NCBI GenBank assembly: GCA_020072965.1
Contig: JAIQFY010000006.1
Location: 1 to 64,000 of the forward strand
Length of the DNA stretch: 64,000 bases
Reading direction: 5' to 3'
Source of the DNA: Terriglobia bacterium
GTDB taxonomy: Bacteria; Acidobacteriota; Terriglobia; JAIQFV01
A model generated the notes under the pieces. That model made no database searches, was not told the DNA's origin, and saw only the letters and a program-made list of their open reading frames with translations. Position numbers and translations under genes: made by a program. Positions 8,186-27,342 of this stretch are shown piece by piece (position 1 is the stretch's first letter; each line of letters begins with the position of its first letter).

Positions 8186-8305
8186 AACGAACAATCCACC
8201 ATTACCCCATATAACACTATTTCCAACGTCTGTATTAGATACGAACCAAGATGCGAGTCTATACGTATAAGCGGGAGGGAAAGTCTGTTCAGGGGGAGAT
8301 GACCT

Positions 8306-10555: not shown

Positions 10556-10673
10556 GGCGGGCGACTCCTGCCGTCAGACAATCGGAGACATCCATTGAGG
10601 AGGTTATGCAAGCTCAGCGGAATCGTCTCGCGTTTCTTTCAATCACCCGCACCACATTGATCGCGGTCCCTCT

Positions 10674-11426
10674 TCACACCTTGGGAGTGAATTGAGCCAG
10701 CTCGTAAATACCCAGGGTCCTTTCAAGCCCGGCCACGCGTTCGACGACCCCCTCGAATCCAGCCTTCCCAAAGAGCGCATGTTCCTTGTCCTCGAACTGG
10801 TCTCCCATGACGTCGAACTCATGTGCGGAGACGACGGATCGAATCGCCGGGAACAGGATGGTGTCTTCCCGTGCTTCGTGAGGCCGGTACATGCGGACGA
10901 AAAGGTCCAGATCCGTCGCCAACGCCTTTCGTTCCGCAGCGGTGCTCAGCGTTGATGCACTGGCACGAGCTTGAATCGAAGCGGTCAGGCGCCGCCCCGC
11001 CTGATGCTGCTGGCGCAGCACACGCACCAGGTCCACCAGCTTTCCGGCCTGTTCAAACCGGGGAAAGAGATGATCCTCCTCCAGCTTCTCGTGATAATCT
11101 TCGATAAAATTCCGGATGATCCCCGCGGCCCCCGCGAGAACTTCGACCGGGAAATCTTTTCCGGTGTTCAAGCGCTGGAGGATCTCCCCATAGATTAAGA
11201 GAATCCGATTTAAGACGCCGTGCTCGCGCATCAGGTCTTCGGGCGGGGATACGTCCTCGGTCGGGTTTTCGTGAATTTCTTTCGCATCCTTTCCGGCCGG
11301 CACCTTTTGGGCAGTTGAGGCTTCGGTCGGCAAGCTTGCTGTTGCGGCGACGAGCAGTCCTGCTTCCAGCAGGAATTCTCGCCGTTCACGGGGTCGTTTC
11401 ATTGCTCTTCCTCCCTTCAAGGACAA
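10674..11426 (-). CDS. Hemerythrin HHE cation-binding-domain protein with a twin-arginine (Tat)-like signal peptide
   Basis: MKRPRERREFLLEAGLLVAATASL carries an RR-x-F-L Tat motif; the likely start is at 11402. It has paired H/E-rich helices (EHGVLNRIL, HEKLEEDHLFP, HEAREDTILFP, EDKEHALFG) typical of hemerythrin-like di-iron domains. Confidence 0.65.
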   Translation of the reverse strand: MSLKGGRAMKRPRERREFLLEAGLLVAATASLPTEASTAQKVPAGKDAKEIHENPTEDVSPPEDLMREHGVLNRILLIYGEILQRLNTGKDFPVEVLAGAAGIIRNFIEDYHEKLEEDHLFPRFEQAGKLVDLVRVLRQQHQAGRRLTASIQARASASTLSTAAERKALATDLDLFVRMYRPHEAREDTILFPAIRSVVSAHEFDVMGDQFEDKEHALFGKAGFEGVVERVAGLERTLGIYELAQFTPKV

Positions 11427-11533
11427 GAGGGACAGACACCTGTTCTGGCGCCACCGCTGCGAAATTTCTTAGGAGAGAGGGCCTGTCCTTAGCTTCCTTG
11501 AGATGGAACTTCACTGTCATCAACTACAGAAAC

Positions 11534-11556
11534 AGGGCAGACGAGGACGTCTGCCC
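11534..11556. repeat. REP-like palindrome, family 3 (GGGCAGACG-AGGA-CGTCTGCCCC)
   Basis: It is a 9-bp inverted repeat with a 4-nt loop, directly 3' of the debranching-enzyme gene. The same unit occurs 3 times at 51554-51656. Confidence 0.6.
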
Positions 11557-11560
11557 CACG

Positions 11561-13633
11561 CTACACTTCTTCCATCAAGACGCGATGGATCTCGGCGACG
11601 CTCCAGGCTTGGGCCAAGCAGCCTTTTCCCGGGGGTCGCGGGGAGCCCTCTTCGGGTGGAGGGACATCACCATCAAAGAGTTCAGGAATCTGGCCCACCC
11701 CTTCGCTCAACATATACTGAATCAGAGGTTCAAGCAGGCTTCGCACGTGCTTCTTATTCCGGGTGGTGCGGGAATGGGCGTTCAAATAAGCTGTGGCGTA
11801 AGGTCCCAGCAGCCACGGCCAGACAGTACCCTGGTGATAGGAGAAATCGCGATCGTAAGCGCTCCCCTGGTACAGGCCCCGATAGTGCGAGTCGTTCTTT
11901 GCCAGTGTTCGAAGGCCGAAAGGCGTCAACAGGTGCTCCGTGACAACCGCCACGACGGGTTTGCGATGCTGTTTTTCAAGGGGGGAGAAGGGTAGCGTCA
12001 TGGCGAATAATTGATTGGGCCGGAGGGACGCATCGATGCCGCTTTCACTGACGACGTCAGACAAATATCCCGCGGCCGGGTTCCAGAAAACCTTGTTGAA
12101 ACTCTCCTGGGCTTGGCGGGCGAGGGAGGTCAATTCCTTGGCCTTTCCCCGGTCACCGAATTTTTTCGCAAAAAATTCCAGCACTTTCAGGGCATTACAC
12201 CAGAGAGCGCAAACCTCAACGGCTTTTCCGTGCCGCGGGGTAACGGCTTGCTCTCCAATCCGGGCGTCCATCCAGGTAAGTTGAACGGATTCCTCTCCGG
12301 CCGAAAGCAGGGCGTCGTCCGACATCCGAATGCCGAAACGCGTTCCCCGGCGGTGGCACTCGAAGCTTTCGATCAGGGCCTCATAGAATCTTTGTTTGAC
12401 GACTTTCAGATCGTCGGTCCGCCGAGCCAGTTCGTACACCAGATGGAAGAGCCAGAGCGTCGCGTCCGCCGTGTTGTATTCGGCTTCTTCTCCCGCCTCC
12501 GGGTGATCCACAAACCGGTTGGGGATCAATCCGTCTCGCATGGAACGAACAAAGGTGCCCAGAATCTCCCGGGCCGCCGGATAATCATCCGTAACAAAGA
12601 GGAGGCCGGGAACTGAAATCATGGTGTCCCGGCCCCAGTCCGTAAACCAGGGATACCCGGCAATGACGGTGGGGGAGTCTTTTTGCCGCCTCACCAGAAA
12701 TTGATCCGCAGCCAACCGGAAGTAGAAAGACGTCTTCTCCGTCGATTTGATTCCCTTCACCAGTCCCTGACGCCGTTCCAGCTCCCGCTGTTTTATCACT
12801 GCGAAGCGTTGAAGCTCGGCCTCTCGAGTCAGGTCAGACCATTCCTCCGCACTGGCAAAGAACCAGAGATGTGTCCCGTTCTTCACGACCGCCCGGAAGT
12901 TTCCCGGGCTGAAGAGATCCTCGGAGAAGTCGAGGCCGCGCTCCTGCTCGCGGAGGTACTCGAAGTTCTTGTACCAGTACCCGTCACGAAAAAAGAAATC
13001 CGCGGTATGGCGAATCACCAAAGGGGGAAGTCCCGGGTAGGGCGAGAATTTCGCGTGATGCTCCCCAATATCGGTGTCCCGCTGGAGGTCACTGTTTTCG
13101 TGGGTCAGAGAATGATAATTCCGATAAGCGAGGAGCGGGCGCATATCAAAGTGGGCCTCCGATTCCTGCGGCCCCGTGAAAGCGTATTCGAGACAGGTGG
13201 CATTGTGTCCGTGAACCATGAAAACAGTCTTCTGGATCTTCCAGTCGCCCACGCGAAAGGTGGCAACGGGGAAGAATAGCTTTTCAAAACGGACCAGGAA
13301 TTGATAGCCCTGGGGATGGATGGCTCCGGGAAACTGGTTGGAACTTAGATCGATCCGGGCGCCTTCGAGCACCAGCGTCTCTTCGAATTTGGAGAGCAGC
13401 ACAAACCGGTTGACTGGGGGGGCGAGCGCCGCCACCAGCAATCCATGATAGCGCCGGGTGTTCATGCCGCACAGGGTAGAGGAGGCAAACCCGCCTAGCC
13501 CATTGGTTTCAAGCCATTCCCGATGTTGGGATCGGGCCAGATTAGAGCACATGTTTTGGTCGAATTTGATCATGATTTTCCATCCATGAAAAAGAGCATG
13601 GTTGAGTCCATGAGAACTCAAGTGTTGGAACAC
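11561..13633 (-). CDS. Glycogen debranching enzyme-like / amylo-alpha-1,6-glucosidase family protein (GDE_N + GDE_C six-hairpin glycosidase)
   Basis: N-terminal NGLGGFASSTLCGMNTRRYHGLL and C-terminal (alpha/alpha)6 region with WMDA, GKAVEVCALW and YHQGTVWPWLLGPY motifs. The likely start is the internal MIKFDQ (~13573). Confidence 0.8.
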   Translation of the reverse strand: MFQHLSSHGLNHALFHGWKIMIKFDQNMCSNLARSQHREWLETNGLGGFASSTLCGMNTRRYHGLLVAALAPPVNRFVLLSKFEETLVLEGARIDLSSNQFPGAIHPQGYQFLVRFEKLFFPVATFRVGDWKIQKTVFMVHGHNATCLEYAFTGPQESEAHFDMRPLLAYRNYHSLTHENSDLQRDTDIGEHHAKFSPYPGLPPLVIRHTADFFFRDGYWYKNFEYLREQERGLDFSEDLFSPGNFRAVVKNGTHLWFFASAEEWSDLTREAELQRFAVIKQRELERRQGLVKGIKSTEKTSFYFRLAADQFLVRRQKDSPTVIAGYPWFTDWGRDTMISVPGLLFVTDDYPAAREILGTFVRSMRDGLIPNRFVDHPEAGEEAEYNTADATLWLFHLVYELARRTDDLKVVKQRFYEALIESFECHRRGTRFGIRMSDDALLSAGEESVQLTWMDARIGEQAVTPRHGKAVEVCALWCNALKVLEFFAKKFGDRGKAKELTSLARQAQESFNKVFWNPAAGYLSDVVSESGIDASLRPNQLFAMTLPFSPLEKQHRKPVVAVVTEHLLTPFGLRTLAKNDSHYRGLYQGSAYDRDFSYHQGTVWPWLLGPYATAYLNAHSRTTRNKKHVRSLLEPLIQYMLSEGVGQIPELFDGDVPPPEEGSPRPPGKGCLAQAWSVAEIHRVLMEEV

Positions 13634-13715
13634 GCGGCAGGCCCAGTTCCTCCTCCCGGTTTCGGGAGATTTCAGGATGAATTTTTCGTCCCTTATGGTA
13701 AACTGGGGAAGCCTT

Positions 13716-13802
13716 ATCCGTCCCGGTCATGGAGGCAAGAGAACGCTGTCTTGGAAACAGCTCATTCTACTTTAAACCCGCAAACCCGTCCATGAATTCA
13801 GG
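13716..13802 (+). promoter_or_regulatory. Conserved non-coding block upstream of pilin cassette 1 (ATCCG..GTCATGGAGGC ... CCGTCCATGAATTCAGG), ~375 nt before the first pilin gene; paralogous to 19204-19285
   Basis: Two conserved sub-blocks are present despite ~40% divergence of the flanking coding genes. The distance to the downstream start codon is almost identical (374 vs 377 nt). Confidence 0.4.
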
Positions 13803-14175
13803 TTTTGCCCAGCCCGGTAGCGATTGAGTTCTGCGGTGATTCCCTTTTTCCCCGAGCGTCGGAGGTGTCGCAACTGCAACCTTCGAAGGGGGGGGCGGAG
13901 TATACGCTTCACAGCTTAACTACGAGGGGGTTCAACTAGGGTAGACGTCAATTTACACCGCGCTGATGTGAGAAAAGTCACAAATTTTGTCACTGTTCGC
14001 TTCACTGTAAAAGGTGTCCGCGGTGGTTGTTGATGGCCCTAAATCCTCGGTATCAAGTTTGGGACGAAATCAAGAGTCACTCCGTCTCGCTGGTTTGTTC
14101 CGGGAGGACGCGGCCTTGGGACAATTTCTTATGTCAGTATGCGGGGCCGAGTGAGTCAGGTACTGTTTCCGAAAA

Positions 14176-14796
14176 TTGAACAAAAAGCGAGCCGACTCTC
14201 TCATGAAGTATTGGGTGAAAGAGCTCATCATAGCGTTCATTGGATCTTGTGGAGCACCGCCTGACCGGAGCGCGGGGCGAAGGCGCTCAAGCGGCGGGTT
14301 TTCATCGCTGGAACTACTCTTCGTCGTCATGATAGTACTCATCATGAGTACCCTGGCTCTCCCGAATATGCTTGAGATGCGCAACAACTACAACTTGCAG
14401 GGCGACTTGCGACTCGTGCAGGTCATGATCCAGACCGGACGTTACAACGCCATTTCACATGGGCGGCAGTATCAGGTTGTTATGCAGACCGATCCCCATC
14501 AGGTTCGGTTGCAGGTGGACGACACGGCTGATCCGCAGGATCCATTGCACGTTCCCAATTTTGTGAATTGTCCGAACGATCAGTATTGTCGGGGCGTGAG
14601 TCCCGTTTCACTCTCGCGAGGCGTACAGTTTGTCAGGGGAGGAACCCTAACGTGCGTTTTCAATGGCAGCGTGACCGGAACGGGGTTTGACACTACCCCA
14701 ACAGGCGAGCCTTATGTGGAAGTAAGAAACAAGAAACATGAGTATCAAGTGGCGGTTTCCCCCCTGGGACGAGTACGCCTCGTGAGGGTTAAGTAA
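14176..14796 (+). CDS. fimT: Type IV pilus minor pilin / pseudopilin, FimT/GspH-like (class III signal peptide)
   Basis: Prepilin motif ...RRRSSGG|FSSLELLFVVMIVLIMSTLAL (G-1, F+1, E+5). The size and C-terminal beta region resemble GspH/FimT. The leader is unusually long, and an internal start at ~14203 is possible. Confidence 0.7.
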   Translation: MNKKRADSLMKYWVKELIIAFIGSCGAPPDRSAGRRRSSGGFSSLELLFVVMIVLIMSTLALPNMLEMRNNYNLQGDLRLVQVMIQTGRYNAISHGRQYQVVMQTDPHQVRLQVDDTADPQDPLHVPNFVNCPNDQYCRGVSPVSLSRGVQFVRGGTLTCVFNGSVTGTGFDTTPTGEPYVEVRNKKHEYQVAVSPLGRVRLVRVK

Positions 14797-14810
14797 CAGA
14801 GGGCATCTCG

Positions 14811-15467
14811 ATGAACTCAGATGTCTTGAAGGGTACCTCAGGCGGAGCAGGATCCGAAGCGAGGCGGCCCATTCGAGCCAACCCTGACCTTGGGTTCTCC
14901 ATTCTCGAGCTGATGATTGCGATTGTAGTCCTGCTTTTCGGCTTCATTGCGATGATCAATTTGATTGCCACGAGCATCGTTGTCAATCGGACTTCCAATC
15001 AGTTGACCTTGCTCACTCTATTGGCCTCCGATAAGCTTGAACAATTGAGGACCCTGGACATCAGCGATCCACAAATACAAGTCCCATCGGGTTCTTTGAA
15101 TGCAGGATCGCTTAATGACGATTCGACCCAGGATGTCGGGGGCACCCGGGTTTCATACTTTGACAACGTTTTTGTCAACCCGCGTGATGGCTCCATCACG
15201 CGCACGGGAGGTCTCGACGGCGAGGGTGAGCACGAGTCCGTCACTCGAACCATGGGAGGGACGACCACCACAACGTCCTCGGATGCTGTGCAGGCGCAGT
15301 TGAGTTATCGCCGAAGGTGGTTGATTCAGAAGGATCCGGCGGTCCTTGCGGGGGCGATCCGGATTACCGTGGAAGTGGCAGTCGGAACAAACACGGGGTC
15401 GGACGCGAACCCCGCCCAGGCCCCCACCGGTGATCGCCAAGTGATCCGTATGACAGCAGTGCGCTGA
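14811..15467 (+). CDS. pilV: Type IV pilus minor pilin PilV-like
   Basis: Prepilin motif ...NPDLG|FSILELMIAIVVLLFGFIAMINL (E+5). It is a paralog of 20285..20971. Confidence 0.7.
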   Translation: MNSDVLKGTSGGAGSEARRPIRANPDLGFSILELMIAIVVLLFGFIAMINLIATSIVVNRTSNQLTLLTLLASDKLEQLRTLDISDPQIQVPSGSLNAGSLNDDSTQDVGGTRVSYFDNVFVNPRDGSITRTGGLDGEGEHESVTRTMGGTTTTTSSDAVQAQLSYRRRWLIQKDPAVLAGAIRITVEVAVGTNTGSDANPAQAPTGDRQVIRMTAVR

Positions 15468-15496
15468 AGAAGCAGGGTAGGGTCAAGACGCCGAGA

Positions 15497-16579
15497 GTGT
15501 TGTCGGCAAAGGTTTCGCAGAGAGTGGGCGATCAGCCATGTCAAATCTTCCTATGTCCCCCAGGCCAGCAATGCCCCATCGCAGTCCCCGGGTATTCCCC
15601 GGGAAAGGACGCCGCACGTCGGGTTAGGTCCGGCTTGGATATGGTCTCGGCCGATCTCGCCAACGCAGGCTCGAACCTGGGCGCGGCAGGGCATGTTGGC
15701 TTTCCATTTCCTGTTATTGTTGAGAAGAACTACAGCCAAACCACTTTTTATCCCACTCCTTACAGCTTTGACAGAATCACTATCTTTCAAGGTATGAATC
15801 CGAACAGCTGCGATTACCTCCCGCCATCGTACCTTAGCGATATGCACGGAACGGGGACAGGGGTGAACAGCTCAGGGCAGACGAGCAACGGCCCGACCTT
15901 GTTCGTTGGGGACGATCAGAATCCAATCCCTTTTCCAAGCTACCCGGACTGTAACGCTGCTTGTAACGCAAGTATGGAGGCCCAATTTCGATGCGCCGCC
16001 AACCGGCTCCCCAGCGGATCTTTTGTTGTGGTCATCAATATTGACCCTAACGATCCAAACTACCGCCAGATTGCACCCATGACTCTGACACAAAACGCGA
16101 GTGTTGATGCTGGCGGTCTTCGAGTCAATCTCAACCACGACCCTCAAGGAGATAGCAGTGGCGGGCTTTATCCCCTGCAACAGGTTCCACGGAACAGGTT
16201 GGGTACGGAATTTCCACGCGGATCCCTGATTGTAAAGTTGGCTCCGCCGATCACTTACTCGGTTGACGTCACTGATCAAGAGCATCCTGTGCTGATCCGC
16301 TCGACGCAGGCCGGCTCAGCCGCAAACCCAACGTCGATCCCCGTGGCAACGAACATCCTCGGTTTCTCGCAGCGGGCCCAACTGCCGACTGGGATCTTCG
16401 ATAATCCGGCGGATTACCTCCCCCAACCGAATGATTTTTCGCTGATTCAGGCCTTGGAGGTGATGGTCGCCGGGAGGACCGAGAGCGGACGCATCGATGA
16501 ATATAAGAGCGCTATCGATCCGACCAGGACGTTTCGGTTGAACACCTTGTCCACAACGACTGCCCTGCGAAACAAATAA
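15497..16579 (+). pseudogene. pilW: PilW-like minor pilin paralog lacking the N-terminal class III signal peptide and hydrophobic helix; probably decayed or non-functional
   Basis: From RVRSGLDMVSADLANAGSNL onward it aligns with paralog 21039..22175. The ~45 aa that carry GFTLLEMLVGIALMVVLGG in the paralog are replaced here by a non-hydrophobic sequence (QIFLCPPGQQCPIAVPGYSPGKD). No frame of 15468-15620 encodes a prepilin helix. Confidence 0.5.
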
Positions 16580-16586
16580 TAGTGAT

Positions 16587-18665
16587 TTGAGGTGTCCCAT
16601 GAAGCCCCCTATATTTTCCCCAGGACCCTATAAGATCGCCCGCCGTGTTCCCTCCAGGCCGGAAGGGGAAAGAGGGATGGCTTTGATCACAGCCCTCATC
16701 TTCCTGGGCGTGGCCATGCTGCTTGGGCTCTCCATCTTGCTCACCACCTCCAGCGACGTGTTCCTCAGTAGTTCGATGCGGAATACCAAGACCGCCTTTT
16801 ACGCCGCCGACGCGGGAGTCAGTGTCATGCGCAAGACCTTAGTGGACGCCTTGAAAGCGCAAACTCCAGCCAGCGGTACGAGCGCAAATACTGTTTTTGA
16901 TTGCTCCGATGATCCTACTTCTGCATTTAACAAATTGATTCTGAACGCGGCGCTGGCGAACGCCGGCAACGGATCGCAACAGACGGTAAGCTCCTACTCC
17001 AGTTATGGGGATTCGGCAGCCGCATTTACGATCGATACACGCAGCGATGGAGCTCAACCCCGCACCTTTTTCAAATGCATCAACCGCGGCAAGGTGACCC
17101 CTGTCCCCATACCACCCGATGCTTCGCACAACGAGACTTACAATTTTGCTTATCAAATTACCTCGAATGGGACGTCGGGGGGCCTTGCCTCCAGCACGGT
17201 CATTGAGCAGGGGACCATTTCGTACAACTTCAATGTCAATGTCAGTCAGCCGCTCTACTTTTTATCAGGGTTTGGAATGTTGCTAAACAATTTTGATCCC
17301 CACAATCCGCCCGGACCGCTTCCTTCCGGCAGGTACACTGGACCTGCTCACACCAATGGAGAATGGGGATTCACGAATGACCCCCCCGGCTACTATGAAT
17401 TCACTGACCAGATCAGCAGTGTCAGCCCGAATGCATATTACGTTTTCGCCGGACCGCCTCCCTTTTCGGAGGACGTCCCGAAGAGTACCGATACCCATAC
17501 GACCGGAAGAATTGCGCCCATATACGATGCCGGGTCAGGGGTCAATTTCGGAGCGGCGAGCGTGCAATTTCCGACGGATTCAAGTAACCAGCTCCACGCC
17601 GTGATTGATGGCTCCGGCTACAATGCCAGCAGTCCTTTCGCACCACAGGCAGGCCTCTCGGACCCTGATTTCCAAACCGCGATGCACAACACACTGGTGG
17701 CCGCCAACAGTTCGCCCTATAACGGCGCCAACGGGGTATACATCCCCGTATCCGTGTCGCGGGATCGGAATGGGAACCCCCTGTCCTGGCAGACCAGGGG
17801 CGGCGGGATTTTCGTCAATGGAAACGTCGATAACCTGACACTGGATGCGCGAACACCGGGATTACAGATCTATATCATCGTCCAGGGCGGACTCACCACG
17901 ACCCTCACTTATAACCTGAACGCGCGGACAACAACGATTCAAAGTGGGGCCTCTTCATTCACGGCTCCGGGATTGCCGACAAATAATCTTCCTTTCCGCA
18001 GTCCGGGTCAGCGTACCTCCCCTGCGACCTCGATTTCGTTCTATGTCAATGGGTCGATCAGCAGCATGCACGGACCGGTTGATGCTTCGGGACAGCAACT
18101 GAATGATGCGGTTACGAAACTACCGATGCCTGGCGTGCAAGATGGCGCCGCCGTGACCATCACCGCGACAGGGGATGTGGAGGTCACGGGGAGTGTGCTT
18201 TACCGTAGTGCTCCTGTGACGACGGCACCAGCAAACACCGCCGGAACCCTCATCCCGGCCAACGACTACGGCCAGGCGCTTGGAATTTACTCCCAAACCG
18301 GGAACATCTATCTTAATGTCGACCATATCCCCTCCCATAATATTGAAGTCGATGCGGCGCTGGCAGCTGTGCACGGAACAGTGACCTGGTCTGGTACGAC
18401 TCGACCCCCAAACGTGACGATCATCGGAGGACGCGTCCAGAACCAACCCGGGTCTATGGGGATCCAGAATACCGTGTTGTTCGATCGGCGCTTTGGGGCC
18501 GGTTTGTATGCTCCGCCGTTCTTTCCGTATATCAATGCATCGAATTTTGCTTTGGCGGGCGCCACCTATGCATTTGCGGTGGTGTGTACCCCCGCGCCCT
18601 GTTTGCCCAAGGCCGTCCCCACGAGCTATTCCGTCCCCTCGCGAATGGTGGCCCCGGCACAATAG
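16587..18665 (+). CDS. pilX: Large PilX-like minor pilin (PilX_N-type N-terminus plus ~600-aa C-terminal region), putative pilus-tip/adhesin component
   Basis: N-terminus ...ERGMALITALIFLGVAMLLGLSILLTTSSDVFLSSSMRNTKTAFYAADAGV matches the PilX N-terminal domain pattern (G-aLi.aLi.L.v..LLg...........s.....AF.AAeAG). It is 692 aa, against ~200 aa for canonical PilX. It is a paralog of 22193..24307. Confidence 0.65.
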   Translation: MRCPMKPPIFSPGPYKIARRVPSRPEGERGMALITALIFLGVAMLLGLSILLTTSSDVFLSSSMRNTKTAFYAADAGVSVMRKTLVDALKAQTPASGTSANTVFDCSDDPTSAFNKLILNAALANAGNGSQQTVSSYSSYGDSAAAFTIDTRSDGAQPRTFFKCINRGKVTPVPIPPDASHNETYNFAYQITSNGTSGGLASSTVIEQGTISYNFNVNVSQPLYFLSGFGMLLNNFDPHNPPGPLPSGRYTGPAHTNGEWGFTNDPPGYYEFTDQISSVSPNAYYVFAGPPPFSEDVPKSTDTHTTGRIAPIYDAGSGVNFGAASVQFPTDSSNQLHAVIDGSGYNASSPFAPQAGLSDPDFQTAMHNTLVAANSSPYNGANGVYIPVSVSRDRNGNPLSWQTRGGGIFVNGNVDNLTLDARTPGLQIYIIVQGGLTTTLTYNLNARTTTIQSGASSFTAPGLPTNNLPFRSPGQRTSPATSISFYVNGSISSMHGPVDASGQQLNDAVTKLPMPGVQDGAAVTITATGDVEVTGSVLYRSAPVTTAPANTAGTLIPANDYGQALGIYSQTGNIYLNVDHIPSHNIEVDAALAAVHGTVTWSGTTRPPNVTIIGGRVQNQPGSMGIQNTVLFDRRFGAGLYAPPFFPYINASNFALAGATYAFAVVCTPAPCLPKAVPTSYSVPSRMVAPAQ

Positions 18666-18690
18666 GTCAAGTCCCCCAAGGGTGGAGTGT

Positions 18691-18789
18691 GGGGCACCGG
18701 GGTGCTTTATTAAGATATAATCCGAGAGCCTGGGGCCGAAGCAGACTGGTGCCCCGTTAATGCCCTGCCGAGTTGGTTAGAAACCTCCT
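18691..18789 (+). other. Conserved structured non-coding element 3' of pilX-like gene 1: 9-10-bp GC helix (GGGGCACCGG ... CTGGTGCCCC) enclosing a ~45-nt loop, followed by a GGTTAGAAACCTCCT mini-hairpin; paralogous to 24332-24432
   Basis: Both copies are alignable over ~100 nt. The closing helix carries a G.U versus G-C difference between copies (G/T in copy 1, G/C in copy 2), consistent with RNA-level conservation. Confidence 0.4.
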
Positions 18790-19203
18790 CCGTGCCTCGA
18801 CGGCGGTGTCCGCATGCTCCCGGCACCATTCCTCACCTTCTGCGACACCCCATACGCCGATCGCGAACGCCACCACTTCGAACACCTCCCCGAACCTCTT
18901 ACCGCTGAAAACGTATTTCCTCACATCCCCCGGCGCTACAGATTCCAGGCCGACTTCCGATTCCTGTACCTCCCCATGTCAAATCAACAACCCTAAAAAA
19001 AATCTCTGCCGCGGCGGATCACCGGGACCACTAAAACTATTGGATTCGATCACGATATTTCATCAGTGAATGAGGGGTCTGTGAATCCACCAGCGGCGCA
19101 TACGTTGGAGCCTGGCTGGAGGCAGCAGTCAACTTCCCGCGCTGCCCGGAGAATTCGGGATGAGTCCCTCTTCATATAATGATAGACAAACGAGGTTTTT
19201 TTC

Positions 19204-19285
19204 ATCCCGATCATGGAGGCGAAATGACACTGCACTGGATAAAACTAATTCTACTTCAATTCCGTTCCCCGTCCATGAATTCAGG
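19204..19285 (+). promoter_or_regulatory. Conserved non-coding block upstream of pilin cassette 2 (paralog of 13716-13802)
   Basis: ATCCCGATCATGGAGGC ... CCGTCCATGAATTCAGG, 377 nt upstream of the first pilin gene. Confidence 0.4.
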
Positions 19286-19661
19286 ATTCACTTGGCCCAG
19301 TAACGACTGAATCCCGCGGTTGACCAGCTTTCTTTCCCGCAGTTCGAGGTTTCAATCATGGGACCTTCGAGAGTGGGAGCGGCATCTTCCCCTCGCAGCA
19401 ACAACCGCATGGGGATTCAAAATTCCTGGGGGTTCGTTTTCAAACAGATTTGTGATCGACGTCACAATCTTCGCCATGGATTTCACTACTCTAAGAAGTG
19501 CCTCGGTGAACGATAATGACCCCATTGTCTTCTTCGCAGATCGGGAATGAACAAAACTCGCACACGGAAACACGTGTTTAATCCGGTGCGACATGTTTTT
19601 GTAACAATAGTATTCGAAGCTATATCTTGCCAGTTGAGTCGGATGGTGTCTGCAAAGAGAG

Positions 19662-20270
19662 GTGGGCAAAGAAATGAATAACGGAGACGGTTTTCCCATG
19701 AAACAGTTAGTCGGGGGGATCAATGCCAGGGTCAGTGGGCCTTCCGGGGCGCGGCGGGGTCTCCGCCAGAGGCGTTTAAATCACGGCTTCTCGGTGATAG
19801 AGATGGTCATCGTCGCCTCGCTGGCGCTCACAGTCGGATCGATTGTTCTGCCGCATTTAGGTCAGATGCGAGAGAATTTCAACATACAGGGCGACATTCG
19901 GGTCGTCCAGACCACCATTCAGAGCACACGGTACAATGCCATCGCACAAGGCCGGCAATATCAAATCGTATTTCAGACGGTTCCGAGTCCCCAGTTGCAG
20001 GTCATGATGGATAATTCACCCAATCCCCAGGAGCCCCCTCCTCACGCGCCGGTTTGGGTAAACCGGGGAGCCCCCGTTCCCCTGTCTCGAAGTGTGCAGC
20101 TTGCCAAGGGAGGGAGCCTGGTGTGTGACTTCAGTGGCACTGTGACCTCTACTGGCTTTGACGTTGACCAGGGCGAGCCATACCTGGAGATGTCGAATAG
20201 CAAGACGGGGAGAGACTATTCTGCGTTCGTTTCAGTGCTGGGGCGTGTGCGCATTGTTCAGAACCACTAG
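19662..20270 (+). CDS. fimT: Type IV pilus minor pilin / pseudopilin FimT/GspH-like, copy 2
   Basis: ...RRLNHG|FSVIEMVIVASLALTVGSIVLP prepilin motif. It is a paralog of 14176..14796 (QGDxRxVQxxIQxxRYNAIxxGRQYQxV conserved). An internal start at ~19698 (MKQLVGG) is possible. Confidence 0.7.
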   Translation: MGKEMNNGDGFPMKQLVGGINARVSGPSGARRGLRQRRLNHGFSVIEMVIVASLALTVGSIVLPHLGQMRENFNIQGDIRVVQTTIQSTRYNAIAQGRQYQIVFQTVPSPQLQVMMDNSPNPQEPPPHAPVWVNRGAPVPLSRSVQLAKGGSLVCDFSGTVTSTGFDVDQGEPYLEMSNSKTGRDYSAFVSVLGRVRIVQNH

Positions 20271-20284
20271 AGTGGGGCATTCTT

Positions 20285-20971
20285 ATGAGCACAAATCATT
20301 CAAACAGTACTGCTGCTTTTCATCCTGTGACACCCCGGTGGCCAGTGCGCATCCGAATGGAGCGAGGCTTTTCCATCCTCGAACTCATGATCGCTCTGTT
20401 TGTGCTGTTGTTCGGGTTCATTACGATGGCCAATCTGATTGCCACTAGTGTCGTTGTGAACCGGTCCTCCAATCATCTGACATCCATCGCCCAACTGGCA
20501 TCAGAAAAGCTGGAAGAAATACGTGCCTTGGACGCCACGGATCCGCGTGTTTACCCTGCGATCCTGTCCGGCAGCCCCGGCGCCCCGGTGACGGGAGGAT
20601 CACTCACTGGAGATGTGACCACCCCGGTCAACGTGGGGGGTGTTAACTATACCATTTCATATTTCGACGTGGTTTACGTCAACCAACGGGACGGTTCCAT
20701 CACGCGGACGGCTGGGCCAGACGATACCGGTAACTTTAGTTCCGAGACCACTTCGCTTGACGGTGCAACGACTCCCCCCGCTGCCTCCGGTAATGAGCCA
20801 ACTCAGTTGAGTTATCGGCGGCGGTGGACCATTGAGAGCAATACCCCCATTAATGGGGCGACTCAGATCACGGTGGAGGTCGCCGTCAAGACGAACAAGT
20901 TGTCGGACCCCGATCCCCCGGCGACACTGAATAATTTTAGGCAAGTGATCCGAATGCGAACTATCCACTAG
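20285..20971 (+). CDS. pilV: Type IV pilus minor pilin PilV-like, copy 2
   Basis: ...RMERG|FSILELMIALFVLLFGFITMANLIATSVVVNRSSN. It is a paralog of 14811..15467. Confidence 0.7.
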   Translation: MSTNHSNSTAAFHPVTPRWPVRIRMERGFSILELMIALFVLLFGFITMANLIATSVVVNRSSNHLTSIAQLASEKLEEIRALDATDPRVYPAILSGSPGAPVTGGSLTGDVTTPVNVGGVNYTISYFDVVYVNQRDGSITRTAGPDDTGNFSSETTSLDGATTPPAASGNEPTQLSYRRRWTIESNTPINGATQITVEVAVKTNKLSDPDPPATLNNFRQVIRMRTIH

Positions 20972-21038
20972 AGAGACGGCGTGGGTTGGCAAGAAGATGG
21001 GCGCCGGGCTCTCTATCTTCGCGAAAAGTGAGTGAGTC

Positions 21039-22175
21039 ATGATGCTGAATGATTTGATCTCTTCAAAAGTTGACTGGCACCAGCGGAATTCCATGCCATG
21101 CCTCAGGCGAGGGCGCCGCTCATCCGGCTTCACCCTTCTGGAAATGTTAGTCGGGATTGCCCTCATGGTGGTTCTGGGCGGGATGGTGTTTGGGCTGTTT
21201 AACAAGCATGCCACGGTCTACAAGCTTCAACAAGAGGTCACTGAACTGAATCTAGGCCTGCGCTCCGGACTGGAACTGATCTCGGCCGATTTGTTGAATG
21301 CAGGCGCCAACCTCTCCGCCGGAGGTTCCCAAAGATTTCCGTTTCCCGTCATGGTCGGTAAGAATGCGAATGGGAACTTTGATTCGATAACTGTTTACCA
21401 AGGGTACAAACAGGACAATGCACTTAACTACGTTTCTCCTACCACCCTGACCAAATTGACCGGGATTGATCCGGGGGTGCCTATTCCGATCAACAACACA
21501 GCGACCTTGTATCTCAATCCTGCACCCGGATTAACCGCAGCTCAGACCGCTGCGTTGCTCCCCGCCGGTGCCTACATCGTCATCGTGAACACGGACACCA
21601 GCGATCCAAACTATGGCCAGATCGCTCCGCTCACCCTGGCAGGTGGGTCGATCGCCTCCAATTGTGGGGCCAGCCCCTGCGTCCAGATCAGCACCACTGG
21701 AGGTCTGGATAACGGATCTGGATTGGTTGGTACCGGGCAGGGCGATGGGGTCGCCCCGGCCAAGCTCGGGACTTCCTTTCCTTTCGGGGCGATGGTCGTG
21801 AAACTGGCTCCCAGGGTGACTTACTTGGTGGATACTGCGATCGATCCGGTCCGACCCGCGTTGGTCCGGACGACAACGACTGCGGCCGGGGAGTCACGCC
21901 TCCAGTTGGTCTCAAACCTCCTCAGTTTCTCGCAACGCGCTCGGATGGCGACGGGGACATTTAATAATCCGGACGACTACACAGGAATTGATCCCCTGGG
22001 AAACCTGGTTGCCATGCGTAGGGATTTTTCACTGATACAATCCGTGGAAGTGACCATTGCGGGAAGAACCGCGACTGATCGTATCGATCGGTACCAAAGT
22101 GCCATTGATCCAACCAAGACCTTTCGACTGAATACTTTAACCACCGTGGTTGCGCTCCGTAATAAGGTTAACTGA
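21039..22175 (+). CDS. pilW: Type IV pilus minor pilin PilW-like, copy 2 (intact class III signal peptide)
   Basis: ...RRGRRSSG|FTLLEMLVGIALMVVLGGMVFGLF; the C-terminal region is homologous to 15497..16579. Confidence 0.7.
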   Translation: MMLNDLISSKVDWHQRNSMPCLRRGRRSSGFTLLEMLVGIALMVVLGGMVFGLFNKHATVYKLQQEVTELNLGLRSGLELISADLLNAGANLSAGGSQRFPFPVMVGKNANGNFDSITVYQGYKQDNALNYVSPTTLTKLTGIDPGVPIPINNTATLYLNPAPGLTAAQTAALLPAGAYIVIVNTDTSDPNYGQIAPLTLAGGSIASNCGASPCVQISTTGGLDNGSGLVGTGQGDGVAPAKLGTSFPFGAMVVKLAPRVTYLVDTAIDPVRPALVRTTTTAAGESRLQLVSNLLSFSQRARMATGTFNNPDDYTGIDPLGNLVAMRRDFSLIQSVEVTIAGRTATDRIDRYQSAIDPTKTFRLNTLTTVVALRNKVN

Positions 22176-22192
22176 CGAATTGAGGTGCCATT

Positions 22193-24307
22193 ATGAAGCA
22201 GGACAAGATCTCCCGTGGATTTCGAAATCTCAAGCATCGCCTGCATTCCAAGGGCAGGGACAAAAACGGAGTGGCCCTGATTACGGCCCTCATCTTCCTG
22301 GGTGTGACCATGCTTCTGGGACTCTCCATCATGCTCACCACGTCCAGTGACGTTTTCATCAGTGGTACCATGCGGAATTCGAAAACCGCCTTTTACGCTG
22401 CGGACGCCGGAATCAGTGTGATGCGGACTGCCCTGGTGAACGAGATCAAGACCCGGACGCCGAGAAATCTGGTCAACGGCACGGACCCTGTTTTTCCATG
22501 CCCCGATGCGACCTTTGACACAGCCGTCCTAACCGCGGCGCTCGGAAACGCGGGAAACGGCAACGCACAAACAGTGAGCTCGTATTCCACCTACGGCGAT
22601 TCACCCGCCAGGTACACGATTGACACGACCAGCCCCGGAGGGCAGCCCCGTACCTCGTTCAGTTGCACTCTGAGGGAAGCTACGGCTGGACCTTTCCCGC
22701 GGTTTGAACGTTATACTTTTGCCTATCAAATTACCGCGAATGGGGGCGTCCCAGGCGCGGCCGCTGATCTGGCCCAAAGCACCGTCATCGAAAAGGGAAC
22801 TATTACCTACAACGCAGAAGTCATCCAAACTGACCATCCCACCGATTACTGGAACCTGCTTTTCTCCTTCGCGGGATATGGGATGTTTATAGACCATTAC
22901 GATCCCCACAACGGGTCAACCCTCCTGCATGGAACCATTACGGGCCGTGTTCATACCAACGGGGAATGGGGATTCTCAACAGGCAATCCGAATTATGTCT
23001 TTACAGATCAAGTGAGCAGCGTCAACCAGAACGCGTGTTACTACTTCAACAGCTGTGTGGACCGCAACGCGAATTCCGTAACCCAAAATGGGCAGACGGT
23101 TGCACCGGTGTTTATGTCGGGCTTTTCACGCGGTGTGCAGAGTGTTTCATTGCCAGAGAATTCCAACAGCCAGTCACGCGCCGTGATCGACGGTTCGGGC
23201 ATTGACATGGCCGCGCTCACAGATCCCAGCCGGGATCCGAATTCTTCCGTGCCTGCTCCGCCAGCGCCCACTGCGGCGGAGTTGAGCGCAAATCTGAGGA
23301 ATGCAAACGGAACCGCATTTGGTGGCGGTAATGGCGTGTACGCCCCCATCCAGATCCAAAGTGACGACGGACGCGGGCATATCACATACAGGACTACAGG
23401 CGCTGGGGTCTATGTGAACGGAAACGTCACGGACATGACCCTGGATGCGAGAACTCCGGGACTGCAGATCTACACGATTAATCAGGGCGGGACTGTCTCA
23501 ACGGTCACCTATAATCTAACCCCTGGCACCGCCATCAACGGTTACCCTCCACTATCGACTACGCTCCAAAGCGGAGGGAGATCCATCACCTCGTCGGGGT
23601 TGCCTACGAATGTCAATCCTGTCAATCCCAATCGGCCTGCCTCACAGCAGCCCGCAGCCTCTATCTCTTTGTATGTGAATGGGGCGATCAATAGCTTGCA
23701 TGGCCCGGGTCCAGGACTACCGGGAGTGCAGGATAGCGCCGCAATGACCATTACAGCGACGGGAAATATTACTATCACTGGGGACTTGGATTATCACACC
23801 AGGCCAGTGACGACGACGCAGGGTCAAGTGGCGCCCGGCGTCCCTCCCAATAGCCCCCCGGGAACCCTCATTCCAAGCAACGACAATGGCCAGGCTCTCG
23901 GAATCTACACTTCCACAGGAAACATCTACATCGACGTCAGTGGTATTCAGTCCCGGAACATCGAGATTGATGCTTCCATGGCCACACTGAGCAATGGAGG
24001 GAATGGAGGTATTACGGTGGGAGGCGGAGTCAATGCGAGCAACATAACGATCGTGGGAGGCCGCATCCAGAATAACATCATGGTGTTGGGCAATTCCAGT
24101 ACGGTTCGCAACGTCTTGTTTGATCGCCGGTACGCAAATAGTGCCTACGCCCCGCCGTTCTTCCCGAGTACCAATGCGGCGGCGATACGCGGCACCGACC
24201 ATACCTTTACCTATCCTGTGGCCGCGGATCCCAACTCTCTGAGGGCCGTGGCTACCAGTTACGTCGTGCCCTCGCGGTTGCTCACGGCGGCGAATGCCGG
24301 CCAATAA
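22193..24307 (+). CDS. pilX: Large PilX-like minor pilin, copy 2 (704 aa)
   Basis: ...KNGVALITALIFLGVTMLLGLSIMLTTSSDVFISGTMRNSKTAFYAADAGISVMR. It shares C-terminal motifs with copy 1 (HTNGEWGF, GNIY.NVD, YAPPFFP). Confidence 0.65.
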   Translation: MKQDKISRGFRNLKHRLHSKGRDKNGVALITALIFLGVTMLLGLSIMLTTSSDVFISGTMRNSKTAFYAADAGISVMRTALVNEIKTRTPRNLVNGTDPVFPCPDATFDTAVLTAALGNAGNGNAQTVSSYSTYGDSPARYTIDTTSPGGQPRTSFSCTLREATAGPFPRFERYTFAYQITANGGVPGAAADLAQSTVIEKGTITYNAEVIQTDHPTDYWNLLFSFAGYGMFIDHYDPHNGSTLLHGTITGRVHTNGEWGFSTGNPNYVFTDQVSSVNQNACYYFNSCVDRNANSVTQNGQTVAPVFMSGFSRGVQSVSLPENSNSQSRAVIDGSGIDMAALTDPSRDPNSSVPAPPAPTAAELSANLRNANGTAFGGGNGVYAPIQIQSDDGRGHITYRTTGAGVYVNGNVTDMTLDARTPGLQIYTINQGGTVSTVTYNLTPGTAINGYPPLSTTLQSGGRSITSSGLPTNVNPVNPNRPASQQPAASISLYVNGAINSLHGPGPGLPGVQDSAAMTITATGNITITGDLDYHTRPVTTTQGQVAPGVPPNSPPGTLIPSNDNGQALGIYTSTGNIYIDVSGIQSRNIEIDASMATLSNGGNGGITVGGGVNASNITIVGGRIQNNIMVLGNSSTVRNVLFDRRYANSAYAPPFFPSTNAAAIRGTDHTFTYPVAADPNSLRAVATSYVVPSRLLTAANAGQ

Positions 24308-24331
24308 AGAGAATCACCCCGCGTCGAAATT

Positions 24332-24432
24332 GGGGCACCGAGTATGCTTTGTTTGAACATGATCTCAGAGCATGTGGCTGAAGCAGACCGGTGCCCCGAC
24401 AATTTCCCTCCCCATTTGGTTTGAAACCTCCT
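24332..24432 (+). other. Conserved structured non-coding element 3' of pilX-like gene 2 (GGGGCACCG ... CGGTGCCCC helix + GGTTTGAAACCTCCT); paralog of 18691-18789
   Basis: See the entry for 18691-18789. Confidence 0.4.
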
Positions 24433-24463
24433 TGCTAGAATCCTCGGAACGCTTGAAATCCTT

Positions 24464-24488
24464 GTAGGGGTGCACAGACGTGCACCCC
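24464..24488. repeat. REP-like palindrome, family 2 variant (GTAGGGG-TGCACAGACGTGCA-CCCC)
   Basis: 5' GTAG hallmark plus GC-rich imperfect palindrome. It forms an inverted pair with 24509-24537. Confidence 0.55.
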
Positions 24489-24508
24489 CGGAAATCATTT
24501 AGACCCCA

Positions 24509-24546
24509 GGGGGCGCACGTCTGTGCGCTCCTACCCCCCTTTTTTT
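24509..24546 (+). terminator. REP-like palindrome (GGGGGCGCACGTCTGTGCGCTCCTACCCCCC) followed by T7: probable intrinsic terminator for pilin cassette 2
   Basis: GC-rich stem-loop immediately followed by TTTTTTT (24540-24546) on the coding strand of the upstream operon. Confidence 0.5.
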
Positions 24547-24846: not shown

Positions 24847-27342
24847 ATGTTTTCCTGCTTGTGCACTGAAATCCGATCAAGCGCCCTCTTGTTCTTCTGC
24901 CTGTTCTTGACACTCGTCAATGTCGGCACTCGAGCCCAGGAGAAACAGCCGCCATCGAACCCGGGAGGTCCGGCCCAACCCGCTCGCGTCGTTCCATCCC
25001 CGCTCCCAGCCAAGCTTGGCGAGCCCGAGGGTTACTTGCTCCCGAATGGGTGGAAACTGACTCCCGCGGGGACCCAAGTGCCGCTGGGTGATCTCCCTTT
25101 GCGAATTGCAGTCAGCCCTGACGGAAAACTCGTAGTGGCCACGAACAATGGCTACGGTGAGCAAGGTTTGACTGTGGTGGATGTGGAGAAACAGGAGAAA
25201 GTGTTCACCATTCCAATGGCGCGCGCTTGGCTGGGACTTCAATTTTCCAGCGACGGAAAAAAGCTCTATGCCTCTGGGGGTGGAGACAACAAAGTTCTTA
25301 TTTATGGTGCTGACCGGGGGATCCAGCCTCAGGCTGAAGAGATCGTCATCGGTGACCGCAAGCAATCCCTGTTCGTCTCCGGCCTTTGCATGGACGCCAC
25401 GGGGAAACGACTCTATGCGGCGCTCAATCTCTCGAATGAACTTGCCGTCGTCGATTTGAAGACCAAGAGTGTCGCCAAAATCATCACGGTGGGCGATCAC
25501 CCGTATACCTGCGTGGTCTCACCCGATGGTAGTCGGGTGTATGTCAGCAACTGGGGCTCGCGGTCCGTGTCTGAAGTGGATACGGCCGCCCTGGATGAAG
25601 TTCGAACGATTACCGTGGGTGACCATCCCAACGACCTTGCCCTCCCTCCCACTGGGAAGCGCCTTTACGTAGCGAATGCCAATTCAAATTCAGTATCAGT
25701 GGTCGACTTGGTGGCTCACCGGGCCGCCGAGACCATTTCGGTGGCGCTCTATCCGAAATCTCCCATCGGATCCACCACCAATGCGCTCGCCCTGACACGT
25801 AACGGCCAAAGGTTATTCGTCGCCAATGCCGATAACAATTCGGTCGCGGTAATCGCCTTGGGCGGAGGAGGTCGTCCCCGGAGTGTTGTCGAAGGCTTTA
25901 TTCCCGTGGGGTGGTATCCCACGGGCCTGGCACTGAGTCCGGATGAAAAGACTCTCTATGTGACGGGCGGGAAGGGCCTGGGATCAAAAGCGAATCCGCA
26001 TGGCCCGAATCCGAATTTAAAGCGAACCAAGGAGACGGAGTACATTGGCCGCATGTTCTCGGGCGTATTGAGCATCATCCCCGTCCCATCGGCTGGGGTC
26101 TTGAAGAATTTCACCGCACAGGTGTATGCCAACTCACCATACAAACCGACCCCCAAGATCTCGCCGGGCGTGACCGCCATTCCTCGAAGACCGGGAGAGC
26201 GTTCCCCTATCCAGCATGTCATTTATATCATCAAAGAGAACCGCACCTATGATCAGGTTTTTGGTGACATCAAGGAAGGCAATGGGGATCCGGATCTGGT
26301 GCTGTTTGGAGAGGCTGTGACGCCGAACCTTCATGCGCTGGTGCGACAGTTCGTCCTGCTCGATAATTTCTATGCCGATTCTGAAGTCAGTGCCGATGGC
26401 CACAATTGGTCGACGGCGGCGTACGCAACAGATTATGTCGAGAAAACGTGGCCCACCAATTACTCATCGCGGGGCCGCGAGTACGATTATGAAGGGGGCG
26501 TGGAGGTCTCCCGGCCTACGCGGGGATTTCTGTGGGATTATGCGGCCCGGGCCGGCCTGAGTTATCGCAGCTACGGAGAGTTTATCGAGGCTTCCGAGTC
26601 GCCAGACCTTCCCTCCCGCGCGCGGGAGAGAAGTCTGGAAGGTCATTTTGACCCCATGTATCGCCCCTGGGATATTAATTATCCGGACCAGAAACGCGTT
26701 GATGAATGGCTCCGCGAATTTCGGGAATTCGAGGAGAAAGGCAATCTTCCCCGCCTTCAAATCCTGCGTCTTCCGAATGATCACACTGAGGGAACGGCGG
26801 CCGGAAAACCGACCCCGCGGGCCTTTGTGGCCGAGAACGACCTTGCTTTGGGCCGTCTCGTGGAAGCCGTCTCCCACAGCATGTACTGGAATAGCACTGC
26901 CATCTTCGTTCTCGAAGATGACGCGCAGAACGGCCCGGACCACGTGGACGCTCATCGCACGGAGGCCCTGGTGATCAGCCCCTACACCAAGCGTCACTTC
27001 ACTGACTCCACCCTGTATTCCACCTCCTCCATGCTCCGCACGATTGAACTGATCCTTGGCCTCCCTCCCATGAGCCAGTACGACGCCGCAGCCACACCCA
27101 TGTGGAACTCTTTCACGAATAGTGCTGCCCTCGAGCCCTTTGCCTCGCTTGCCGCCCAGGTGCCGCTCGACGAGAAGAACCCGGAATCCGCACCCGGCGC
27201 CAAGCGTAGTGCTGCTTTCAATTTTTCTAAAGAGGATTCTGCCCCGGACATTGAACTGAATGAGATCATCTGGAAATCCATCAAAGGGGCGGGTTCAGAA
27301 ATGCCCGCCCCCGTCCGCGCGGCCTGGGTGAGGGGGAAATAG
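24847..27342 (+). CDS. Secreted bifunctional-architecture protein: N-terminal YVTN-family beta-propeller repeats fused to a C-terminal phosphoesterase-family domain (non-haemolytic phospholipase C / acid phosphatase AcpA type)
   Basis: Signal peptide, repeated YVxNxxSNSVSVVD / YVANANSNSVSV beta-propeller blades, then VIYIIKENRTYDQVFGD...GHNWSTAAYATDYVE...LRLPNDHTEG, which is characteristic of the PF04185 phosphoesterase family. Confidence 0.8.
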   Translation: MFSCLCTEIRSSALLFFCLFLTLVNVGTRAQEKQPPSNPGGPAQPARVVPSPLPAKLGEPEGYLLPNGWKLTPAGTQVPLGDLPLRIAVSPDGKLVVATNNGYGEQGLTVVDVEKQEKVFTIPMARAWLGLQFSSDGKKLYASGGGDNKVLIYGADRGIQPQAEEIVIGDRKQSLFVSGLCMDATGKRLYAALNLSNELAVVDLKTKSVAKIITVGDHPYTCVVSPDGSRVYVSNWGSRSVSEVDTAALDEVRTITVGDHPNDLALPPTGKRLYVANANSNSVSVVDLVAHRAAETISVALYPKSPIGSTTNALALTRNGQRLFVANADNNSVAVIALGGGGRPRSVVEGFIPVGWYPTGLALSPDEKTLYVTGGKGLGSKANPHGPNPNLKRTKETEYIGRMFSGVLSIIPVPSAGVLKNFTAQVYANSPYKPTPKISPGVTAIPRRPGERSPIQHVIYIIKENRTYDQVFGDIKEGNGDPDLVLFGEAVTPNLHALVRQFVLLDNFYADSEVSADGHNWSTAAYATDYVEKTWPTNYSSRGREYDYEGGVEVSRPTRGFLWDYAARAGLSYRSYGEFIEASESPDLPSRARERSLEGHFDPMYRPWDINYPDQKRVDEWLREFREFEEKGNLPRLQILRLPNDHTEGTAAGKPTPRAFVAENDLALGRLVEAVSHSMYWNSTAIFVLEDDAQNGPDHVDAHRTEALVISPYTKRHFTDSTLYSTSSMLRTIELILGLPPMSQYDAAATPMWNSFTNSAALEPFASLAAQVPLDEKNPESAPGAKRSAAFNFSKEDSAPDIELNEIIWKSIKGAGSEMPAPVRAAWVRGK

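Follow-up and report, generated by a model that had tools for sequence, protein, structure and literature searches.

Tandem minor-pilin cassettes with predicted ComZ-type apical pilins in a Terriglobia bacterium

We analysed a stretch of 64,000 nucleotides (nt) from a Terriglobia bacterium (assembly GCA_020072965.1, contig JAIQFY010000006.1, positions 1 to 64,000), below called the window, which contains two tandem cassettes of minor-pilin genes. Eight open reading frames (ORFs) on the plus strand form two co-linear sets in the order H-V-W-X, at 14176-18665 and 19662-24307, exactly where an original prediction made from the sequence alone had placed them. The preferred reading, to which we assign a probability of about 0.7, is that H, V, W and X prime a surface pilus, the giant X protein being an apical pilin of the ComZ type whose beta-solenoid would take the role of PilY1. 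This reading starts from the observed gene content, homology, fold, conservation, duplication history and purifying selection. The tip location, the donation of a beta-strand in cis, the replacement of PilY1 and the ligand are suggested by the fold and by published precedents.

Gene content and predicted fold

The genes of each cassette are separated by gaps of 7-67 nt, as in an operon. Cassette 1 starts with H1 (14176-14796), which encodes a minor pilin of the GspH/FimT/FimU type with the motif SGG/FSSLE and a hydrophobic helix. Its true start is likely the ATG at 14203, which gives a protein of 197 amino acids (aa), the length of the gene call in L082, a contig of the same organism. It is followed by V1 (14811-15467; PilV/GspI type, 218 aa, motif LG/FSILE), W1 (15497-16579; PilW type, damaged in the window) and X1 (16587-18665; motif G/MALIT), a candidate giant apical pilin of the PilX/GspK type with a beta-solenoid. 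X1 has 692 aa, or 688 aa from 16599 in the L082 gene call. Cassette 2 consists of the corresponding genes H2 (19662-20270; motif NHG/FSVIE, 198 aa from 19674 in the L082 gene call), V2 (20285-20971; 228 aa, RG/FSILE), W2 (21039-22175; 378 aa, intact, SSG/FTLLE) and X2 (22193-24307; 704 aa, G/VALIT). The unusual X lengths of 692 and 704 aa are thus as originally described. Identity between the paralogs is 45% for H, 50% for V, 42% for W and 46% for X (BLASTP E-values of 1.7e-51 to 1.5e-180), and the duplication is therefore real and old.

The prepilin motif G/F..E5 and the following hydrophobic helix are present in H1, H2, V1, V2 and W2. Class III signal peptides, predicted for all eight proteins, were recovered in these five and not in the W1 of the window; X1 and X2 lack the glutamate at position 5. 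The consensus of 87 X family members, RG/VALIT, has the same property. Absence of Glu at +5 is stated as a rule for the PilX/GspK-type apical minor pilins (PMC13533445).

Family alignments of H, V, W and X were built from related loci and compared with known families using hidden Markov models (HMMs). H1 has weak matches to the NCBIfam models of GspH and ComGD, and H2 to those of GspH and ComGD/E; in the H family, Pfam GspH is matched by 30 of 45 members and N_methyl by 38 of 45. The PilV model TIGR02523 matches V1 (E 2.2e-6), V2 (E 3.7e-7) and 46/47 members of the V family, GspI matches 8/47, and the cyanobacterial NCBIfam model HpsB 6/47. W2 matches N_methyl above the cut-off (26.5 bits). 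All 46 members of the W family have N_methyl, and ten of them match Pfam PilW. The N-terminus of NCBIfam GspK is matched by 20 of 25 X family members. For PilX_N (PF14341), which most X homologs match according to precomputed annotation, the cut-off is 25.5 bits; X2 scores 31.6, whereas X1, at 25.4 bits (E 1.4e-5), falls 0.1 bit short, and the predicted PilX-type N-terminus thus passes the threshold in X2 only. The family profiles also match the N-terminal helices of solved pilins (E 1e-9 to 1e-4). Given this family-level support, the cassette order corresponds to GspH/FimU, PilV/GspI, PilW/GspJ, PilX/GspK, that is, to the universal core priming set. By sequence, H is assigned as the GspH/FimU-type adaptor, V and W as the PilV/GspI-type and PilW/GspJ-type subunits, and X as the apical PilX/GspK-type subunit without Glu5.

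X1 and X2 were modelled with AlphaFold2 from 25-sequence alignments, and the models were compared with PDB structures using Foldseek. The mean predicted local distance difference test score (pLDDT) is 77.3 for X2 and 78.8 for X1, and most of the beta-rich region exceeds 90. Both models begin with a long N-terminal helix and a four-stranded sheet, continue with short parallel strands over approximately 400 residues, and close with two terminal strands. The sole significant match of the X2 model is ComZ of Thermus thermophilus (6qvi, E 3.8e-5, probability 1.00), co-linear over the whole length. The X1 model is as confident as that of X2, and its match to ComZ is better still. Among solved structures, ComZ is the best or the sole significant relative of each model; solenoids of the ice-binding type and GspK/XcpX come next. 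The models suggest a GspK-like pilin fold carrying a triangular beta-solenoid of the ice-binding-protein type, and the insertion is predicted to be this solenoid rather than the alpha-domain of GspK. The study of ComZ (PMC6561018) names GspK as the relative of its pilin domain and ice-binding protein as the relative of its solenoid. Since Foldseek returns ComZ and the same two relatives, X1 and X2 are probable ComZ-type apical pilins by fold.

A PilY1-like beta-propeller or a vWA domain, proposed as what a structure check of the C-terminal regions might reveal, was not found in either protein, nor was any match to Pfam PilY1 (PF05567); the models have the triangular beta-solenoid instead. The motifs noted in the original prediction are mostly shared: HTNGEWGF and YAPPFFP occur in both proteins, whereas the third motif reads GNIYLNVD in X1 and has the counterpart GNIYIDVS in X2. 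The C-terminal tail is retained in all 87 X proteins as FDRRF…APP(W/F)FP, a variable stretch, and V-x-R-x-x-W near the end. The identity between X1 and X2 is lowest (28-39%) at solenoid residues ~296-406 and ~593-632, and reaches 82% in the N-terminal helix. This is the pattern expected if the tips differ in ligand but dock to one machine.

A scan of one genome per species yielded 236 relatives, and the 80 best were taken for a survey of loci; almost all of these are metagenome-assembled genomes (MAGs) of Terriglobia/Acidobacteriota from soils and peat. As the original prediction had proposed to check, the H-V-W-X architecture recurs in related genomes: wherever the flank suffices, it is nearly always present with an X protein of 620-710 aa, and it occurs in most of the 80 loci. 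Most Terriglobia loci have one set. The predicted absence of PilY1 and major pilin genes holds for the window and for the flanks of all 80 loci, where clustering of the flanking ORFs revealed no further conserved neighbour, no PilY1 and no major pilin. A scan for prepilin motifs near the cassettes found no additional prepilin gene. A profile search with the X family among 1.84 billion representative sequences returned 245 clusters (50% identity) at E<=1e-30. An NCBI protein from a MAG of "Acidobacteriia bacterium", labelled only as pilus assembly PilX N-terminal domain-containing protein, has the same sequence as X2.

Duplication history and the state of cassette 1

L001, the closest relative at the species level, shares synteny and the flanking genes with the window and has a single cassette, orthologous to cassette 2; its X protein is 68% identical to X2 and its H protein 70% identical to H2. 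A further locus, L081, was found via P0011, the closest homolog of X1 (84% identical), and carries the same tandem pair. A neighbour-joining tree built from 87 X proteins places X1, together with its ortholog in L081, as the sister group of a clade formed by X2, the X protein of L001 and the X2 ortholog of L081. According to this tree, the duplication occurred inside this lineage, at or before the split of L001, in which the first copy was lost or never became fixed. Paralog identity, phylogeny and synteny agree with the predicted old age of the duplication.

The two cassettes are each preceded by a conserved upstream block. Copy 1 (13691-13871), approximately 180 nt long, lies in the divergent intergenic region between the gene for glycogen debranching enzyme on the minus strand and H1; copy 2 (19176-19354) lies about 310 nt upstream of H2. 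The copies are 72.6% identical over 117 nt. In nhmmer searches the block was found only upstream of the cassettes in the window, L001 (7030-7211) and L081 (200-380 and 6090-6270), with E-values from 1e-46 to 1e-54, and its conservation exceeds that of the coding sequence. Within it are the palindrome TGAATTCA and a promoter-like site on the minus strand, TGGACG-N17-TAGAAT; overall, the scan for promoters and terminators stayed at background level. No RNA family of Rfam was found in the window or in the block, and a structured RNA was rejected as an explanation of the block because the covariation term is negligible (-0.24 kcal/mol). The block is probably a shared regulatory region duplicated with the operon. 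Judged from these sequences, the second cassette appears to be the product of an old, lineage-specific tandem duplication of a unit made of the upstream block and HVWX.

Duplications are seen elsewhere in Terriglobia. The complete chromosome OY968796.1 (L075) contains a direct tandem HVWX pair at 7606-16762, with X paralogs that are each other's closest relatives. In L057 (2756-12058) two cassettes are divergently oriented and their X proteins belong to different clades. Duplications of X only are present in L047 (4446-10659) and L062 (659-6809). The duplications in L075, in L057 and in L047 and L062 are independent events. Two contigs of MAG MFD09603.bin.2.4 (L066 and L067) have nearly identical HVWX loci, reflecting either a very recent duplication or redundancy of the bin.

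The W1 gene of the window lacks the N_methyl match, the prepilin signal and the N-terminal helix; from residue 43 onward its product is 42% identical to W2. It is an exception, since N_methyl is present in all 46 members of the W family. Two assemblies of the same organism, L082 (ENA, a contig of 132,756 bp) and L083 (Logan), explain the damage. They are 100% identical to the window on either side of 15625/15626, a point at which 131 nt, flanked by two GGGTT(T) repeats, are missing from the window. The deletion splits W1 into a leader of 29 codons (15538-15627), ending with TAG, and a body in another frame, with the mature N-terminal helix gone. The intact W1 of L082 and L083 has 379 aa, begins with MPHRSPRVFPGKGRRTSGFTFIEMMVGV and contains RRTSGFTFIEMMVGV, and the W1 ortholog in L081 has 405 aa and the intact N-terminus TTGFTFIEMMVGV. 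From the sequence comparison, the deletion stems from variation among strains or else from an error of assembly, and cassette 1 is complete in the population. Interpretation of W1 as a pseudogene was dropped, as the sibling assemblies carry the intact gene. The claim that a complete cassette had been duplicated thus stands for cassette 2, and requires correction for cassette 1 as it appears in the window.

An alternative reading is that cassette 1 is a redundant, decaying copy, that only cassette 2 is functional and that there are no alternative tips. The frameshifting deletion in W1 is in line with this, as are the presence of only the cassette 2 ortholog at the syntenic site of L001, the PilX_N score of X1 just below the cut-off, and the ratios of nonsynonymous to synonymous substitution rates (dN/dS) relative to L081, which are 0.25-0.56 in cassette 1 versus 0.12-0.20 in cassette 2. 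However, dN/dS is below 1 for all genes, so both cassettes are under purifying selection, including the four genes of cassette 1. Two assemblies of the same organism and L081 have an undamaged W1, the X1 model equals that of X2 in confidence and matches ComZ even better, the upstream block is kept before both cassettes, and independent duplications have occurred elsewhere in Terriglobia. We therefore regard decay of cassette 1 as unlikely. Alternative pilus tips, suggested in the original prediction as the use of the two cassettes, are plausible given the precedent of cyanobacteria and Myxococcus, the recurrent duplications in Terriglobia and the purifying selection; the defective W1 weakens the idea for the sequence of the window.

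The synonymous divergence (dS) between the window and L081 forms a mosaic: it is 0.23-0.40 in cassette 1, 0.77-1.03 in cassette 2 and 0.53 in the downstream flanking gene. One possibility is recombination or replacement of cassettes between lineages.

The candidate pilus tip and alternative readings

A protein of the ComZ type was argued to fit only at the tip of a fibre (PMC6561018). According to a 2026 study (PMC13533445), assembly of the tip complex is licensed by a C-terminal beta-strand that is added to the sheet of PilK/PilX/GspK. The strand is donated in trans by PilY1/PilC; where PilY1 is absent, it is donated in cis, by GspK, by CpaL and by PilK homologs in which a large insertion separates the sheet from the donor strand. 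The Thermus competence pilus is named there as an example of donation in cis. All cyanobacterial PilX proteins have a solenoid, and cyanobacteria lack PilY1 (preprint 10.64898/2026.02.12.705559). In the same preprint, two different pili are each primed by one of two paralogous FimT-PilW-PilV-PilX sets, and the solenoid is proposed as a tip plug or adhesin that substitutes for the PilY1 plug.

By analogy, the X family of Terriglobia fits the template of donation in cis, having a pilin domain, a solenoid and a conserved tail; the donation itself is a prediction. X would fold in the periplasm, and its own C-terminal strand would complete the pilin sheet in cis. A dimer of V and W, as well as H, would then dock onto X. 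The major pilins, encoded elsewhere, would polymerise beneath this priming complex, and the solenoid would cap the fibre, giving it the plug and adhesin role that PilY1/PilC has in Proteobacteria. The second cassette would most likely let one pilus machine build fibres with two tips. The originally suggested fusion of a priming complex and a tip adhesin in X is thus supported as far as the ComZ-type fold and the synteny are concerned; its tip location, adhesion and replacement of PilY1 are extrapolated from fold and precedent.

Several observations weigh against this reading. The Foldseek template modelling scores (TM-scores) are low (0.26/0.34). There is no likeness to ComZ at the sequence level, and searches of PDB chains with X2 and with the X family profile were empty. 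The order of the N-terminal helix, four sheet strands, solenoid and terminal strands is compatible with a ComZ-type insertion, but the predicted C-terminal strands (683-691 and 698-702 in X2, 633-637 and 645-652 in X1) have pLDDT of around 35-65 in these monomer models. The subfamily HMM matches of the window's own H, V and W proteins are below the curated cut-offs. W1 is broken in the window sequence. Finally, the 64 kb of the window contain no gene for PilY1, a major pilin, a pilus motor or a secretin, and the genes of the partner machine, which may be a type IVa pilus (T4aP), a T2SS-like system or a competence system, are not seen there.

The cassettes could instead prime a competence pilus for DNA uptake, with the X solenoid serving as a DNA receptor at the tip, as proposed for ComZ with PilA2. 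No solved structure is closer to the two X proteins than ComZ, the Thermus locus pilA1-pilA2-pilA3-comZ has the same order, and the cyanobacterial PilX_Com sets are specific for competence. However, the sequence similarity of X to ComZ is nil, and there is no comEA, comEC or dprA near the cassettes in the window or in the 80 loci. Moreover, DNA binding by ComZ was mapped to lysines, whereas the X solenoids are acidic (isoelectric point 5.2-5.6) and contain 0-2 lysines; 41-47% of their residues are Ser, Thr, Asn, Gly or Gln. A role in competence therefore seems quite unlikely. The acidity, the scarcity of lysine and the composition, together with a similarity to tapirin, lean weakly towards adhesion to surfaces or polysaccharides over DNA binding of the ComZ kind.

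Very unlikely, in our opinion, is that the four proteins are the GspH-I-J-K minor pseudopilins of a periplasmic pseudopilus similar to that of type II secretion systems, with no surface pilus. Members of the H family match Pfam GspH, the N-termini of X match NCBIfam GspK, GspK and XcpX are structural relatives of X, and type II secretion systems also lack PilY1. On the other hand, V matches PilV in 46 of 47 cases and GspI in eight, members of the W family match PilW, and X matches PilX_N. The operon is situated in a gsp cluster at none of the 80 loci, and gsp genes are absent from the window. X also has no GspK alpha-domain; in its place there is a predicted solenoid of ~400 residues of the type present in ComZ and cyanobacterial PilX, where it occurs on extracellular pili.

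It is equally improbable that a conventional PilY1/PilC encoded elsewhere caps the pilus while the X solenoid serves as a spacer or regulator: the sequence covered is 64 kb of the genome, and in some bacteria minor-pilin and pilY1 genes are unlinked, but no PilY1-like gene adjoins any of about 80 cassettes, the beta-propeller protein adjacent to cassette 2 (see below) is neither PilY1 nor conserved beside the cassettes outside this clade, and in the published systems it is those without PilY1 whose PilK homologs have both a large insertion and a C-terminal strand acting in cis.

The preferred reading, a ComZ-type X protein priming and capping a surface pilus, can be extended tentatively. The class Terriglobia may have given up PilY1, a phylum-specific solenoid PilX of unrelated sequence would combine licensing, plug and adhesin, and the repeated duplication of the operon or of X would supply interchangeable tips for one machine. 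We consider this extension doubtful though possible. If it is true, the tips would differ in ligand specificity, for example for different soil polysaccharides, and the dS mosaic would reflect exchange of tips between lineages at the level of cassettes.

Neighbouring genes and known systems

Other genes of the window encode a glycogen debranching enzyme (minus strand), a fusion of a YncE-type propeller and a phosphoesterase, phosphoenolpyruvate (PEP) mutase, ThiC and enzymes of fatty-acid oxidation. The fusion is a secreted protein of 831 aa (24847-27342, plus strand) directly downstream of cassette 2, with a beta-propeller of the YncE/lactonase type and a phosphoesterase domain (PF04185). It is syntenic in L001 and L081 and unlinked to cassettes in the other loci. 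We considered it as a hidden PilY1 and ruled this out, given its domain composition and the lack of linkage to cassettes outside the clade.

A tyrosine recombinase of the phage-integrase/Xer type is encoded at 59537-60613 (plus strand). There are no tRNA genes anywhere in the window. The minus strand of 2-3697 is one open frame of at least 1232 aa that runs off the start of the window. It encodes a signal peptide and tandem repeats of ~95 residues and then passes, in mid-repeat and without a stop codon, into an encapsulin shell protein, which starts with MNNLHRELAPIS and matches Pfam Linocin_M18 with E 3.6e-51. The GC content of this region is 0.63-0.68, compared with about 0.56 elsewhere. A genuine fusion, two separate genes sharing a frame and a chimeric join are all conceivable.

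In soil, Acidobacteriota rank among the most abundant bacteria, and hardly any work exists on their surface appendages. A literature search on minor pilins and PilY1 in Acidobacteria found nothing that mentions Acidobacteria, and one on "DUF4900" found nothing relevant. The concept of a solenoid PilX in place of PilY1 is already published (ComZ in 2019, cyanobacterial PilX and in-cis licensing in 2026), and Terriglobia are an added case and not a new machine. The present analysis would add a third phylum to those with this design and favours the view that licensing of the tip in cis is widespread. It also lets annotators give a specific name to several hundred protein clusters that are at present called PilX N-terminal domain-containing, and the tandem pair is a natural test case for the diversification of pilus tip specificity.

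One of the closest known counterparts is ComZ of T. thermophilus (PDB 6QVI), encoded in the pilA1-pilA2-pilA3-comZ locus. The X proteins are 140-200 residues longer and have no detectable sequence similarity to it. ComZ binds DNA via lysines, whereas the X solenoid is acidic and nearly lysine-free. In Thermus, comZ is followed by pilA4, whereas no major pilin gene follows the operon of Terriglobia, which belong to the phylum Acidobacteriota. The cyanobacterial sets with PilX_Com and PilX_EPS (HpsA) resemble the Terriglobia pair in having core sets of four genes, two diverged versions per genome, a solenoid PilX and no PilY1. However, they are ancient, phylum-wide subfamilies with assigned functions, whereas the pair in the window is a young, lineage-specific tandem.

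In GspK and XcpX (PDB 3CI0, 5VTM) the sheet is interrupted midway by an alpha-helical insertion, and gspK is located inside gsp operons; the predicted beta-solenoid of X is on the C-terminal side. The Tad tip protein CpaL/TadG of Caulobacter, similar to a minor pilin and ~600 residues long, has an N-terminal pilin-like domain, a large adhesin region in the middle and, at its extreme C-terminus, a strand donated in cis, an architecture like that predicted for X. It differs in filament class (T4c) and in its partner pilins CpaJ/K. FimU-PilV-PilW-PilX-PilY1-PilE of Pseudomonas aeruginosa and the three minor-pilin/PilY1 clusters of Myxococcus xanthus share with the Terriglobia operon the order H-V-W-X and the presumed priming role, and the Myxococcus clusters indicate that several paralogous sets can serve one machine. 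In both systems PilX is small, at about 200 aa, and is accompanied by a separate PilY1 and often by PilE, whereas neither PilY1 nor PilE adjoins the Terriglobia cassettes in the window or in the 80 loci.

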